Assembly: GCA_041690395.1 (NCBI GenBank)
Contig: JAWLHJ010000005.1
Location: 384,001-448,000 of the forward strand
DNA length: 64,000 nucleotides
Reading direction: 5' to 3'
DNA from: Longimicrobiales bacterium
GTDB lineage: Bacteria; Gemmatimonadota; Gemmatimonadetes; Longimicrobiales; Gaopeijiaceae
The position numbers and the translations under genes are program-made. Within the stretch, counting starts at the first letter, position 1; every line of letters starts with the position of its first letter. Positions 90 to 4,646 of the stretch are shown one piece after another. Under the pieces are notes generated by a model. That model ran no database searches and was not told where the DNA came from. It was given only the letters and a program-made list of their open reading frames with translations.

Positions 90-118
90 CGGGAACTCCG
101 AGTTATATGACACACGCC
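90..118 (+). mobile_element. Integron-type recombination point (attI-like simple site or end of an upstream attC); 5' boundary of cassette 1
   Basis: CGGGAAC-TCCGA-GTTATATG has inverted AAC/GTT cores with a 5-nt spacer. 102-118 GTTATATGACACACGCC is 16/17 complementary to 1172-1188 GGCGTGCGTCATATAAC after ORF1. Direct repeat CACGCCCCAA at 6-15 and 18-27. Confidence 0.5.
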
Positions 119-136
119 TCGAACGAACGGTTCTGA

Positions 137-1162
137 ATGGCCGATCTACACGCTTGGTGGAAAGGCCGCGAAGGCGAATCGTATTGGCTAGAAGTAACCG
201 ACCGTGAGGATCTCGGAACGAACCTGAAGGCGCCCCAAGAGAACGAGGCAGGTGGGGACTTCTGGAGCTACTCCCTCGTTCGAGAGGTCTCGTCGGGTGA
301 CAGAGTCTTCCACTACGACAGGCCGTCTCAACGCATCATGGCTCGGTCCCGGGCCACTGGTGACGTTTGGGATGACCAGCTCGTGTGGGGCGCACGCGGT
401 ACGTACGCGCGCCAAGCCGGAGTCGAGCCTTATCCGCGGCCAGGATGGTACGCTGGCCTTGAGGGCTTCGAGCATCTCGCGCAGCCACTCGAGCTGGAGG
501 GGATTCGCTCGAAGATGGCTGAGATCCGTCAGGCGTATAGGAACCTGGTCCATCAGGTAGGGTCGCCGCTGTACTTCCCGTTTGAGACCGGGACGAAGCG
601 TCCCACCCGCCCGATGCAGGGCTACCTCTTCAAGCTGCCCCGATTCTTTGTGGAGCTCTTTCCTGAGCTGCACATGGGCATGGACTTGGGAGAGGTCACA
701 ATGGGAAAGAGCGAGGACCAGTTTGGAGCCAGCTACAGACGGGCAGACGAAGAGACATCCGTGGGAGCCTTCGATCCGATGGAGGTTGACCCGGCTGTAG
801 TCGAACGCGGCACTCGGGGTCATGCGATGACCCAGAACGCCTTGGCAGATTATGTCGAGTCTCTCGGCCTCACACCCCGCTCACCCCAACCCGACGAACC
901 GAACTTCGATCTGGCCTGGGAGGCTGGAGACCGAGTCTTTGTTGCGGAAGTGAAGAGCGTGACGAATCGTAACGAAGAGCGGCAGCTTCGGATGGGACTC
1001 GGTCAAGTCCTCCAGTACCGCCACCATTTAGAGATCAAGCTCGGCCGGCCCGTCGTCGCGGTATTGGCTTCAGAGCGACGACCTCCGGCAGGGTGGGTCA
1101 GCCTCTTTGGCTCACTCGGAGTTCTAATCGTTTGGCCCGCAGACTTCACCAAGCTGGGGTGA
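137..1162 (+). CDS. EVE/PUA-like domain fused to PD-(D/E)XK nuclease; candidate modification-dependent (type IV) restriction enzyme
   Basis: N-terminal YW..W-SY-SLVREVSSGDRVFHY...QGYLF resembles the EVE domains of EVE-HNH nucleases. C-terminal PNFDLAW..VAEVKS..GQVLQY gives PD-(D/E)XK plus QxxxY motifs. Confidence 0.65.
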   Translation: MADLHAWWKGREGESYWLEVTDREDLGTNLKAPQENEAGGDFWSYSLVREVSSGDRVFHYDRPSQRIMARSRATGDVWDDQLVWGARGTYARQAGVEPYPRPGWYAGLEGFEHLAQPLELEGIRSKMAEIRQAYRNLVHQVGSPLYFPFETGTKRPTRPMQGYLFKLPRFFVELFPELHMGMDLGEVTMGKSEDQFGASYRRADEETSVGAFDPMEVDPAVVERGTRGHAMTQNALADYVESLGLTPRSPQPDEPNFDLAWEAGDRVFVAEVKSVTNRNEERQLRMGLGQVLQYRHHLEIKLGRPVVAVLASERRPPAGWVSLFGSLGVLIVWPADFTKLG

Positions 1163-1181: not shown

Positions 1182-1266
1182 ATATAACAAGTATGTTTCC
1201 GGCTCCGCTCACTTCGTTCGCTCCGACCTATATGGCCTCGACCGGGTGGACTCTGTACTGTTATCC
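1182..1266 (+). mobile_element. attC-like site 1
   Basis: Starts 19 nt after the ORF1 stop with ATATAAC and ends at GTTATCC. Core TAACAAG..ATG..TTTCCGGCTC..CTC.CTTCGTTCGCTCCGAC.TATATGG is shared with 2845-2900. Arm pairing is imperfect. Confidence 0.55.
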
Positions 1267-1363
1267 ACACTTCGTAGGTTTCAGGAAGACCGACGCGTCT
1301 GGTGGGGCCACTGCCGACGCATCTGAACGCTAGGGAGCCCCTGGACAGGATAGGCCGGCCGGA

Positions 1364-2821
1364 ATGACCGACGGAGAGGAGGCGAAGGGCTGGCGGGTCC
1401 GGGTTCAGCCCACAGAGCTCCCTGTCCCTGATGAAGATCCATTTCGACATGACCTATTGGGACGTCGAGAAGCAGTTGAGGTCCTTTCTGAGCTGCTTTC
1501 CCACATCGAAGGCCCGTGTGTGTTCGCCTTGGACGCACCCTGGGGAACCGGGAAGACCTCTTTCCTGCGCATGTGGTCTGCCCATTTGCGGCAGCTCGGA
1601 TTTGCGGTAGCTGAGTTCAACGCCTGGGAGACTGACTTCACGGGCGAACCCTTTGCGGCATTGACGGCAGAACTCGGACGCTCCCTCACCCGCGATTCCG
1701 GCTCTCGGCTCGAAAAGGCTCTGTCAGGCACGCGGGCGGCGGCGATCCAAGTGCTCAAGTATACCCTACCTGGTGCTATCCGGCTTGCCACGGCGGGTGC
1801 TCTGGATCTCAACCCACTGATCGAGGGCGAGCTAGGATCTGGTTTGGCCGCCTTGGCCGAAGAACAACTACAGCGCTATGAGCAGGCGCGGGATTCCATC
1901 GCGTCCTTTCGAACGGAATTGTCCGGACTTGCTGCAGAAGTCAACAAGGACAGCGCCGGGCATCCACTTGTGATCTTTGTGGACGAACTCGACCGGTGCC
2001 GGCCATCCTATGCGGTAGAGCTTCTTGAGGTCGCAAAGCACCTCTTCTCCGTCGATAACATCATCTTTGTGGTAAGCATCGATCGGCGAGAGTTGGGCCA
2101 CTCGATTCGGGCCATCTACGGCTCAGATTTTGATGCATCTGGGTACCTCCGGCGCTTCTTTGATGTGGACTACGCCCTTCCGGTTCCGGACCGCACAAGG
2201 TTCGTGGAGAGCTTGCTCCAGGGAGGCTCAATCGAGGCGTACTTCGGTCGCACCAAGGACGAAGATGCACGGAGGCTTCGAGAGGTCATCACGAAGATGC
2301 TTTCGTTGCTGCTGGGGGAGTCTTCGGTCGGTCTCCGGCCAATCGCTCAAGGGGTCAACCGGCTCGCACTAGTTCTGGGGTCCTTGCCAGCCGACAAGCG
2401 CATGTTTGCAGTGACAGCAGCCACCTTGGTCATCCTCCGAACTCTGGACCCGATGCTGTACCAAGACCTGGTCTTGGGGAGGAGGTCGGACGCGGAGATC
2501 CTTGACCGGATCTTTGAAGACCCTGCCTTGGAGTTGGTTCGCGGAAAGCATGTGGCGAACCTCTTTGAGGCAACGATCATGGCCGGTGTCACGGAGCTCG
2601 ACCGCCCATCAGCGTTGAAAGAGCGGCTGAAGAAACTTGCCGATCAGGATAAGCCTCCGGGAGGAGAAGACCCGCCCGAGGTGGTTCAGGCCAGAAAGTC
2701 ACTTGGTTACCTGTCGCAGCTTGCTCGGGATGGATTCGACGGGAGTGTCGGATTCCGATACTCGATACGTCGATTGGAACTCCTCTCGCCTGCATTTATT
2801 GGGGCTCGAGAAGACCTGTAG
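1364..2821 (+). CDS. KAP-family P-loop NTPase
   Basis: Walker A APWGTGKTS, FNAWE, Walker B VIFVDELDRCRP and YLRRFFD; no obvious transmembrane insert. Confidence 0.9.
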   Translation: MTDGEEAKGWRVRVQPTELPVPDEDPFRHDLLGRREAVEVLSELLSHIEGPCVFALDAPWGTGKTSFLRMWSAHLRQLGFAVAEFNAWETDFTGEPFAALTAELGRSLTRDSGSRLEKALSGTRAAAIQVLKYTLPGAIRLATAGALDLNPLIEGELGSGLAALAEEQLQRYEQARDSIASFRTELSGLAAEVNKDSAGHPLVIFVDELDRCRPSYAVELLEVAKHLFSVDNIIFVVSIDRRELGHSIRAIYGSDFDASGYLRRFFDVDYALPVPDRTRFVESLLQGGSIEAYFGRTKDEDARRLREVITKMLSLLLGESSVGLRPIAQGVNRLALVLGSLPADKRMFAVTAATLVILRTLDPMLYQDLVLGRRSDAEILDRIFEDPALELVRGKHVANLFEATIMAGVTELDRPSALKERLKKLADQDKPPGGEDPPEVVQARKSLGYLSQLARDGFDGSVGFRYSIRRLELLSPAFIGAREDL

Positions 2822-2844: not shown

Positions 2845-2917
2845 GGATAACAAGGATGTGTTTCCGGCTCTACTCGCTTCGTTCGCTCCGACGTATATGG
2901 TCGAAGCATTGTTGTGG
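2845..2917 (+). mobile_element. attC-like site 2 (possibly damaged on its right side)
   Basis: GGATAAC, 23 nt after the KAP stop, is the exact complement of GTTATCC at 1260 upstream of the KAP gene. It carries the second copy of the ~55-bp core. The next GTT is at 2911. Confidence 0.55.
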
Positions 2918-2919
2918 CT

Positions 2920-3003
2920 GAGAGACGGATCGCAGCGTATTCTGAGCTAGGTCGACAGGAGTCTGCCAGCGGCGCCAGAGCTGACGTGTTCGACTACATC
3001 GAC
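2920..3003 (+). pseudogene. IS3-family transposase C-terminal remnant
   Basis: Translates ..ERRIAAY..GARADVFDYID, resembling the IS3 OrfB C-terminal motif EARADVFDYIE.FYN; the rest of the transposase is absent. Confidence 0.5.
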
Positions 3004-3092: not shown

Positions 3093-4646
3093 CTAGTCGT
3101 CTTGAGCCGCTTTCTTCTTCGGAGGGGCCTTCTTCCTTCGCGCCACTTTCTCCTTCGGAGCGGCCTTCTTACTCGGCGGCGCTTTCTTCTTTGAAGCGAC
3201 CTTCTTCTTCGGAGCGACCTTCTTCTTCGGAGCGGCCTTCTTCTTTGGAGCGGCCTTCTTCCTTGGCTCTTTGTCTCCGTCAGGGGACGCACCAGCCCCG
3301 GAGCGGATATGCCCGCCGGACTGCGAGCTGCTGTCGGCCGGGGCGAACCTGTCAGCCAGGGCGTGGAACCGTGAATCCTTGCGTATCTCGCGGAACACCG
3401 GCCATTCGTAACACGCCTGATAGTCCAGGTCTCGACCTTCAGTGGCCTCAACGAGGTTCAAGAACGCGTCCGTTTCGTCCAAGAGTGCCAGCCGCACCAG
3501 CTTGAAGGGGGTACTTAACGCCGAATCGTCGAATTCTTCGATTTCCGCTCGGACTTCGTCGAGCCGCCCCTGCCATTTCTTGCACTGCCAGGCGTTCAAG
3601 CGACACACAAGCTTCGTAGCTGCGCTGAGCCGTTTGCTATCCATGCCTTCGCCTGCAACCATCAACGCGTGCGACCACCGCTCCTTCACGAGTAGATCAT
3701 AGACGTGCTCTAACAACATGTTCTCGAACGCCGCGAGGTCTTCCCTCTGGAGCGAGACCCAGGCCGTGAAGTACGCCATAGTACCAAGAAGTTCAAAATG
3801 GTCGAGGGCGTTTTCCACGTACGGCCTATCAATGTCTGCAGGTTGACCGACATCAGCGTCACCGAAGTACCGGGTCACGACCGTCGGGTGCACGTTCTCC
3901 AAGTACCGCCGGGTGATGCGGCCACCAGCGTGCACGACGATATGACGTCGCTGGACAAACTCTTTGAACTCCTCCCAATCTGGTGACAGCCGTTTGAGAT
4001 CGACCCTCACAGAGCTTCCGAGGAACTTCGCCCACTCATCGACAGACTTCATGAGCAAGTCATCTGTCCGTTTCTCAACCAAGAAGTCGATCGCGCCCTC
4101 TACGCTTCCAATCTGCTGGAGATCGGCGAGCGTCAGCGTCGCCTGGGCGGCGCCGAGCGCCTCTGGAGTGCGTGCGTAGTACTGGTGAGCGATGTCAGCG
4201 ATCAATACCTCGAACTGTCCGACGAGCCCAGTCAGCACTGCGCGATAGAGCAACTTCCGCTGGGTTGGACTACCGACCTCAACGCGTCGCCTTACCCGCT
4301 CGAGGATGTCGTGGAAGGCAGTGGCGGACGGACCGGTAAGACGGAGAGACACAGCCTTTGAGGGGCCCACACCATCGTCCCTCTCTTCGTCAGCCTTGTC
4401 TTCGTCCTCGACCTCTCGCCCGGCTAAGGAGCGGAGAGCTCGGATCAGTGCCCCGCGGTCCTCATGGGACAACCCCCCTACGATCTCTGATAGGTGACTG
4501 CTGAACTCGTCAGCCTCACCGGCCTCGAGCTCCTCAATCGACCCGTGGAGGTGTTCGAGGAAGAGGCGAAATGCCTCGATAGAGTATGTGTAGTTGGTGA
4601 ACGCGTTTCTAAAGGACTGGTCAACGGAGGCTAGATCTTCACTCAT
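3093..4646 (-). CDS. HEPN-like (RxxxxH) protein with C-terminal histone-H1-like Lys/Ala/Pro tail
   Basis: LVGQFEVLIADI helix and EFVQRRHIVVHAGG (R-x4-H, 3930-3950); tail KKAAPKKKAAPKKKVAPKKKVASKKK. Confidence 0.6.
   Translation of the reverse strand: MSEDLASVDQSFRNAFTNYTYSIEAFRLFLEHLHGSIEELEAGEADEFSSHLSEIVGGLSHEDRGALIRALRSLAGREVEDEDKADEERDDGVGPSKAVSLRLTGPSATAFHDILERVRRRVEVGSPTQRKLLYRAVLTGLVGQFEVLIADIAHQYYARTPEALGAAQATLTLADLQQIGSVEGAIDFLVEKRTDDLLMKSVDEWAKFLGSSVRVDLKRLSPDWEEFKEFVQRRHIVVHAGGRITRRYLENVHPTVVTRYFGDADVGQPADIDRPYVENALDHFELLGTMAYFTAWVSLQREDLAAFENMLLEHVYDLLVKERWSHALMVAGEGMDSKRLSAATKLVCRLNAWQCKKWQGRLDEVRAEIEEFDDSALSTPFKLVRLALLDETDAFLNLVEATEGRDLDYQACYEWPVFREIRKDSRFHALADRFAPADSSSQSGGHIRSGAGASPDGDKEPRKKAAPKKKAAPKKKVAPKKKVASKKKAPPSKKAAPKEKVARRKKAPPKKKAAQDD
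3105..3260 (-). repeat. Coding tandem repeat (~18-bp unit, KKKAAP)
   Basis: Repeated cttcttcttcggagcg-type units on the plus strand. Confidence 0.85.

Follow-up and report, generated by a model that had tools for sequence, protein, structure and literature searches.

Locus organization and gene content

The window, that is, the whole 64,000-nucleotide stretch of DNA analysed, carries at its left end a compact gene, designated P0001, followed by a second gene and bounded by cassette-end and attC sequences. The features of this region, all on the plus strand, are as follows.

102..118, plus strand: start of the P0001 cassette, core site GTTRRRY and the next bases, complementary to 1172-1188
137..1162, plus strand: gene P0001, encoding an EVE-PD-(D/E)XK protein of 341 amino acid residues, from ATG to TGA with no internal stops
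176..676, plus strand: EVE (PUA-superfamily) domain, residues 14-180, assigned by fold match; candidate pocket P33, W84 and Y163, candidate wedge Q161
722..1159, plus strand: nuclease module, residues 196-341, assigned by fold matches and conservation
908..910, 947..949, 953..955 and 1004..1018, plus strand: codons of the conserved nuclease core, D258, E271, K273 and Q290xxxY294, respectively
1185..1332, plus strand: attC of the P0001 cassette, 148 bp, decayed, with R' GCTA instead of GTTA and an L box pairing at 6/9
1364..2821, plus strand: KAP P-loop NTPase gene, next cassette (Pfam KAP_NTPase E 1e-34; PADLOC PDC-S20 E 1e-115)
2848..2995, plus strand: attC-family repeat closing the KAP cassette, more decayed (direct repeat D3, 90% over 42 nt; similar to the array repeats by blastn, right end approximate)

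The open reading frame picked out by the sequence-only reading proved intact, and all motifs quoted there were located in the deduced protein, namely SYSLVREVSSGDRVFHY at residues 44-60, QGYLF at 161-165, D258, E271-V-K273 and Q290-V-L-Q-Y294. The gene has a GC content of 0.606, compared with 0.60 in the host cassette arrays and approximately 0.69 genome-wide.

The cassette ends, at 102 and 1188, form an inverted repeat (I3, 94% over 17 nt) in which 16 of 17 bases are complementary, against at most 14 in 1400 shuffled flanks. Their end grammar scored 12 of 13, against host array means of 11.5 and 10.6. The 148-bp site downstream belongs to a repeat family of 43 attC sites, about 150 bp long, in terminal arrays on contigs C1 and C2; in these arrays the L box pairs at 9/9 in 40 sites, and GTTA was recorded for all 43 in the scoring. 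The copy at 1185-1332 does not possess the intact R and L boxes of a recombination-competent attC, and its bottom-strand folding z was -0.42, versus -2.23 for one array copy. A shorter attC of about 80 bp ending at GTTATCC near 1261 was also considered and dropped, its folding being unremarkable and the array comparison having yielded a site of about 150 bp. The P0001 gene is a single-gene integron cassette; the mobilisation as a cassette proposed from the letters alone was right and, with the matched ends and the host-family attC, can be made specific. No attC, attI-like sequence or integrase was found just upstream of it and, because its attC is also decayed, the cassette is probably fixed at its site.

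The decayed attC, the lack of an attC or attI-like sequence upstream and of an adjacent integrase would also fit a stranded, unexpressed copy, whatever the function of the family. No promoter was found upstream of P0001 by a sigma-70 consensus scan, and a terminator-like hairpin lies approximately 170-200 nt upstream of the gene, so that this copy may be silent. That the locus amounts to such a stranded cassette nevertheless seems hardly likely at all, given that the reading frame and every conserved residue are intact and that the promoter scan covered the sigma-70 consensus only. The preservation of the reading frame while the adjacent attC gathered several changes suggests selection on the protein.

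The host arrays lie at 764.9-775.8 kb of C2 and 983.8-1018 kb of C1 and together hold at least 43 attC sites, with cargo typical of cassettes (toxin-antitoxin pairs, Fic, GNAT and GyrI-like proteins). A tyrosine recombinase heads the C2 array on the cassette strand (L051:519-1796; approximately 763.0-764.3 kb of C2 in G000). It was the best match to TIGR02249 (107 + 103 bits, below the cut-off of 265) and lacks model positions 176-230, which we take to be, probably, the IntI-specific insertion. Its N-terminal extension of about 150 amino acids has no Pfam match and presumably resembles a HARP-like domain.

Neighbouring genes and defence context

The KAP NTPase stands alone in its cassette, with decayed attC sites on both flanks. 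An operon comprising P0001 and this NTPase was considered and rejected, as the two genes occupy separate cassettes and the pairing is not conserved among relatives. The low-GC region is closed by a gene at 3093-4646 on the minus strand, whose 517-amino acid product contains the sequence RRHIVVH (HEPN-like RxxxxH; weak PADLOC HEPN match, E 0.009) and C-terminal lysine-rich repeats of six residues, encoded by an 18-nt DNA repeat at 3105-3285.

Upstream of the window, another low-GC island (L001:7115-15932) lies between a tRNA-Lys gene and its 3' repeat, and contains genes for McrB, McrC, a C5-cytosine methyltransferase and Vsr (convergent), a 5'-nucleotidase and a DUF3644 protein, together with two further attC-family repeats. 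The McrBC genes next to the methyltransferase may constitute an LlaJI-like system that restricts unmodified DNA. The methyltransferase (PF00145, E 4e-48), the only PF00145 match in the host genome, lies 5.2 kb upstream of the P0001 start, on the opposite strand and outside the window. Consequently, the earlier statement that no methyltransferase is nearby holds for the window itself and up to 3 kb from the gene, and not at this larger distance. A cognate pair of P0001 and this enzyme was rejected in view of the opposite strand, the distance of 5.2 kb, the methyltransferase's own Vsr and McrBC partners, and its position beyond the tRNA-Lys repeat. No cognate methyltransferase was found in the P0001 cassette or within 3 kb, and the C5 methyltransferase belongs to another island. 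With the McrBC island upstream and PDC-S20 downstream, P0001 is located in a defence context, which counts in favour of reading it as a restriction enzyme of type IV, which depends on DNA modification.

Annotation and distribution of P0001

P0001 had no significant match in Pfam, NCBIfam or PADLOC, its best Pfam score being a weak one to XisH (E 0.096), and the PADLOC search that the sequence-only reading had suggested left the family undetected. Searches of PDB sequences with P0001 and with profile A1 returned nothing meaningful. In the ESM Atlas, unnamed clusters ranked first, followed by clusters partly annotated as DUF8426, NucS_C, ScoMcrA_N and EVE + NucS_C, which may serve as leads. Among 4622 candidates of similar length, 369 homologues were recovered at E ≤ 1e-3, and none of the 120 homologues listed carries a precomputed Pfam domain. 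A profile built from 109 homologues matched 2577 representatives with a cut-off of E ≤ 1e-3, and 798 when this was tightened to E ≤ 1e-30, single-domain matches being counted. None of 50,697 phage records was matched, plasmid records gave three matches, all partial, and the search of 60 related genomes revealed no full-length P0001 gene and two short weak matches. This sporadic occurrence, together with the absence of a partner gene, counts in favour of the type IV reading.

The AlphaFold2 model of P0001 consists of two confident domains joined by a short, flexible linker, within the total of 341 residues (mean pLDDT 88, below 50 at residues 185-192). The combination of AlphaFold and Foldseek put forward in the sequence-only reading returned an EVE fold for the N-terminal domain, and structural comparison of the model gave a PD-(D/E)XK fold for the C-terminal half.

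The N-terminal EVE domain and its candidate base pocket

Modelled alone, the EVE domain gave a pLDDT of 89 and a pTM of 0.86. In a comparison with 48,161 chains, the best structural match to residues 14-180 was VcaM4I (6yex; Z 14.2, rmsd 2.7 Å, 142 aligned residues), with other EVE domains ranking behind it (about 10, the next one at 10.7), then ASCH (9.1), YTH (7.3 or less) and SRA (about 3); Foldseek gave an E value of 5e-8 for the match to VcaM4I. The EVE/PUA-like fold first suspected from a W/Y-rich segment is therefore supported. Pfam EVE (PF01878) did not match P0001 at E ≤ 1 and matched 17 of 109 family members at E ≤ 0.1 (best 7e-4), while two more distant homologues of the domain, P0129 and P0265, passed its curated cut-off.

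According to the excerpts available of PMC7897488, VcaM4I flips 5mC or 5hmC into a pocket between Y130 and W82/P24, with Q128 filling the gap; the edge of the base is read by Q10, T11, E15 and the main chain of W22. HMMER profiles of the P0001 family aligned to VcaM4I weakly (E 1.2, and E 0.074 as top match), alignments that are not significant by themselves; in their register, W22-S23-P24 of VcaM4I fall on K31-A32-P33 of P0001, and Q128, Y130 and F132 on Q161, Y163 and F165. A homologue in which a P0001-type EVE domain is fused to HNH (P0215) aligned to VcaM4I with E 0.0011. Of 100 distant representatives, 98 have P33, 97 have W84, 89 have Q161 and 99 have Y163. Judging from this conservation, W84 is the probable equivalent of VcaM4I W82, although the alignments obtained with P0247 and A4 did not extend across W82.

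The base-edge loop, which carries Q10, T11 and E15 in VcaM4I, is four residues shorter in P0001 and is marked by invariant residues of its own, E19, T21, R23 and D25, accompanied by Y45 and H59. An equivalence of VcaM4I T11 and E15 with P0001 T21 and D25, deduced from spacing, was dropped once the alignment register was seen; D25 may still stand for E15. The position of W22 is variable in the family (N in 27, K in 25, H in 21, R in 16 and W in 5 of 100), although VcaM4I uses only the main chain of this residue. In summary, analogy gives good support to base flipping by the P0001 EVE domain and weaker support to the identity of the base.

The shorter, unmapped base-edge loop, the replaced W22 and the weak Pfam EVE scores count against a reader of C5-modified cytosine, and the loop with its private invariant set would suit a type IV enzyme that reads another mark, such as hypermodified T or U, 6mA, N4-modified cytosine or deazapurine. 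Some EVE domains are indeed expected to bind modified T, U or A (PMC7641849, as excerpted), enzymes of the VcaM4I group also cut 5hmU DNA (PMC6765204, as excerpted), and a mark of this kind would remove the conflict with the host C5 methyltransferase. Against this stand the clear position of VcaM4I as the nearest structure, with the 6mA-binding YTH fold at Z of about 7, and the agreement of the P0001 stacking and wedge residues with those of VcaM4I, so that we grant this alternative a modest but real chance and retain C5-modified cytosine as the preferred target.

The C-terminal nuclease module

The module starts with a conserved leader (Y200, D213, D218, R224), continues with a helix bearing H229 and Q233, and ends with the PD-(D/E)XK core. 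Many PD-(D/E)XK chains matched the C-terminal domain with Z values of 8 to 10.4, the highest being NucS (2vld, 10.4), AF1548 (10.2), Cdn1 (10.2), Can2 (9.4) and the XisH-family protein 2okf (9.3), a near tie that does not identify the substrate; NucS 2vld aligned to residues 228-336 only. In the alignment of 109 close homologues, D258, E271 and K273 are present in all, Q290 in 108 and Y294 in 107. The corresponding numbers among 112 distant representatives are 112, 110, 111, 110 and 111, with H229 present in all 112. The QxxxY motif that follows the ExK strand (Q290xxxY294) places the core among RecB-type PD-(D/E)XK nucleases as described in the accessible part of PMC2475608. The fold matches and these near-invariant residues agree with the PD-(D/E)XK-QxxxY nuclease that the sequence-only reading had called. 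Weak matches to Pfam XisH were obtained for 33 of the 109 family members, whereas Pfam NucS_C, Mrr_cat and NOV_C gave no significant match in P0001.

Since the C-terminal half matches the catalytic domain of NucS best and a base-flipping pocket could also read a damaged base, P0001 might act independently of DNA modification, as a NucS-like repair nuclease or as a sequence-specific endonuclease with a separate methyltransferase, some relatives being encoded near such genes. This we consider very improbable: the N-terminal domain matches EVE and not the NucS N-terminal domain, the gene is sporadic, unlike a repair gene, no methyltransferase type recurs beside it in the loci examined, and the single-gene cassette has none.

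The C-terminal fold is as close to the CRISPR ancillary nucleases Cdn1, Can2 and Card1 (Z 8.5-10.2) as to NucS, which leaves room for defence by tight binding to modified DNA, or by killing of the infected cell through a DNA or RNA nuclease of low specificity. In the excerpted text of PMC6765204, PD-(D/E)XK fusions of the McaZI group and YenY4I restrict T4gt in vivo and barely cut in vitro. Moreover, out of 51 dereplicated relatives 19 are disrupted, as might be expected of a gene that is costly, assembly error being another possible cause. However, no CARF or other signal-binding domain was detected in P0001, its complete catalytic motif is strongly conserved, and the fold scores concerned are ties; we therefore judge this explanation improbable and continue to favour a nuclease that cleaves modified DNA.

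Domain swapping and genomic loci of relatives

The best 150 representatives comprised 69 with both domains, 19 with the EVE domain and another tail, 17 with the nuclease and another head, and 45 fragments or partial proteins; among the 69, 23 had an N-terminal extension and one an insert. Sixty-seven proteins, picked by eye as swapped or extended, were scanned against Pfam and PADLOC. Other tails in this set included HNH (seven) and NOV_C (three), and other heads included Pfam EVE (two), most proteins being without a Pfam match; five EVE-HNH forms matched PADLOC type IV models, and three extended family members matched the first 90 positions of one such model. Both halves of the P0001 family thus exchange partners as type IV modules do, which counts for the type IV reading; shuffling of sensors and effectors among modification-dependent enzymes is described in the sections available of PMC6765204 and PMC7641849.

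Six extended members (P0151, P0134, P0139, P0154, P0133 and P0165) carry a possible second sensor or regulator; the head of P0133 is PDC-S02-like and P0165 has an HTH domain. The insert between the EVE domain and the nuclease of P0151 may resemble a sulfur-binding domain. Furthermore, in loci L037-L044 (Arthrobacter and relatives), similarity to P0237 and P0217 indicates a compact version of the P0001-type EVE domain joined to a NOV_C/DUF3883-like nuclease, and in the two loci inspected this fusion lies directly 3' of a helicase-like gene of about 750 amino acids.

Neighbour genes were compared in 61 near-full-length loci, 51 after dereplication, 3 kb being available on both sides in 19 only; within these limits no neighbour was common to more than two of the 51 loci. 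The absence of a conserved partner gene accords with the stand-alone status claimed earlier. In a survey of 15 genome loci, based on 95 neighbour reading frames selected from a crude ORF caller, defence genes occurred within about 5 kb in seven, and DNA methyltransferases within about 4 kb in four, directly upstream and on the same strand in L023. The latter count against the type IV reading, though the types differ, and no recurring methyltransferase type was found beside P0001 relatives among the loci examined. One relative (L027:3361-9147) is located among genes for dCTP deaminase, RelA/SpoT-like and GmrSD_N/NsnA-like proteins.

The broken relatives (L016-L131) are disrupted by stops, frameshifts or interruption, with an IS element in L021, and may reflect either a cost to the host or assembly error. 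Cassette ends were recognized in two of 55 testable loci, the P0001 locus and L069 (63% identical), in which the attC is intact.

Predicted function and proposed mechanism

Taken together, and by analogy with characterized EVE enzymes, P0001 is predicted with moderate confidence to be a stand-alone type IV restriction enzyme acting on DNA that contains C5-modified cytosine. The EVE domain would flip the modified base into a pocket formed by P33, Y163 and probably W84, with Q161 filling the gap left in the helix. D258, E271 and K273 would then coordinate Mg2+ or Mn2+ and cleave the backbone close to the mark, as expected from PD-(D/E)XK chemistry, Q290xxxY294 serving as an auxiliary motif. Because each chain has one active site, double-strand breaks would imply dimers of P0001.

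The target would likely be phage DNA that bears 5hmC or a similar modification, and not the ordinary 5mC of the host. The host possesses a C5 methyltransferase, which would conflict with a promiscuous 5mC cutter and counts against a 5mC target; a 5hmC-like phage mark or a narrow sequence context would accordingly be preferred. A bolder proposal, to which we assign a small chance, is that the remodelled EVE loop reads a mark outside those of characterized EVE, SRA and YTH domains, that the nuclease is an undescribed plug-in effector of many unrelated sensors, and that the family constitutes a new type IV specificity class spread in part by integrons.

If the prediction of a type IV enzyme is true, a widespread family missed by defence inventories, to which Pfam, NCBIfam and PADLOC are blind, would join the type IV arsenal; and if the protein is specific for 5hmC or another mark, it might also serve as a reagent with which DNA modifications are mapped.

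Comparison with known systems

Recognition of modified cytosine by EVE domains has been described for EVE-HNH enzymes such as VcaM4I (PMC7897488, as excerpted). Like VcaM4I, TspA15I and CmeDI (PDB 6yex; excerpts of PMC7897488 and PMC6765204), P0001 has an N-terminal EVE domain, a sensor-then-nuclease order, a similar size and no partner methyltransferase. VcaM4I P24, Q128 and Y130 have equivalents in P33, Q161 and Y163 in a weak alignment, and the P0001-type EVE domain occurs in homologues fused to a VcaM4I-like HNH domain. It differs in that its EVE domain is longer (14-180 in the model against 1-151 in the chain), with a shorter base-edge loop and an identity of about 18-20%, and in that its nuclease is of the PD-(D/E)XK-QxxxY type instead of HNH, which places P0001 outside the EVE-HNH group. 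In the portion available of PMC6765204, enzymes of the VcaM4I group favour 5hmC.

The closest tested fusion is YenY4I, composed of an EVE-like domain, DUF3427 and a DUF3883 PD-(D/E)XK domain, whose N-terminal domain clusters with that of VcaM4I and which, in the 2019 experiments reported in the accessible text, was weakly 5mC/5hmC-dependent and restricted T4gt (PMC6765204). P0001 shares with it the combination of a VcaM4I-clade reader and a PD-(D/E)XK nuclease. However, YenY4I has about 600 residues and DUF3427 as a second sensor, which the 341-residue P0001 lacks, and the two do not form one group; moreover, its DUF3883/NOV_C nuclease is unmatched by P0001, and the NOV_C-tailed homologues are without H229 and QxxxY in the alignment. 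Several such reader-nuclease fusions showed weak or inconclusive activity according to the same excerpts (PMC6765204).

NucS/EndoMS, the Mrr-like AF1548 and XisH share with P0001 the PD-(D/E)XK core and a QxxxY-type helix (Z 9.3-10.4); P0001 differs from them by an additional leader, conserved in the family over residues 196-234, and by its N-terminal domain, which is EVE and not that of NucS. Anti-phage integron cassettes (excerpts of 10.1101/2024.07.02.601686 and 10.1101/2024.07.02.601719) resemble P0001 as compact, single-gene, attC-bounded defence candidates; unlike them, the P0001 cassette sits outside the main array and has a decayed attC.

The nearest precedent is computational. In 2020, Bell, Wolf and Koonin (PMC7641849, as excerpted) listed EVE-PD(D/E)XK among the core architectures that putative type IV enzymes display. 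Theirs is a bioinformatic class predicted from sequences, in which the architecture and the predicted function are identical to those of P0001. Three motifs of the P0001 family were not found in the part available of supplement 2 of that article, no two-domain EVE-PD(D/E)XK enzyme is named in the accessible text of a 2025 review (PMC12707154), and a search of open-access literature by literal words yielded no experimental report on the family or on two-domain EVE-PD(D/E)XK proteins. The family that P0001 represents is uncharacterised and unannotated; its kind was known and had been predicted before, and its novelty is modest: with the architecture and function predicted in 2020 (PMC7641849, as excerpted), it would not surprise a specialist. 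The designation of a new type IV enzyme in the sequence-only reading was hence overstated, the architecture being on record in PMC7641849 and YenY4I having been tested (PMC6765204), both as excerpted, while the unannotated two-domain family is itself new. As a cofactor-free protein of small size with two domains, P0001 would, if the prediction is correct, be suited to testing the EVE-PD(D/E)XK class.
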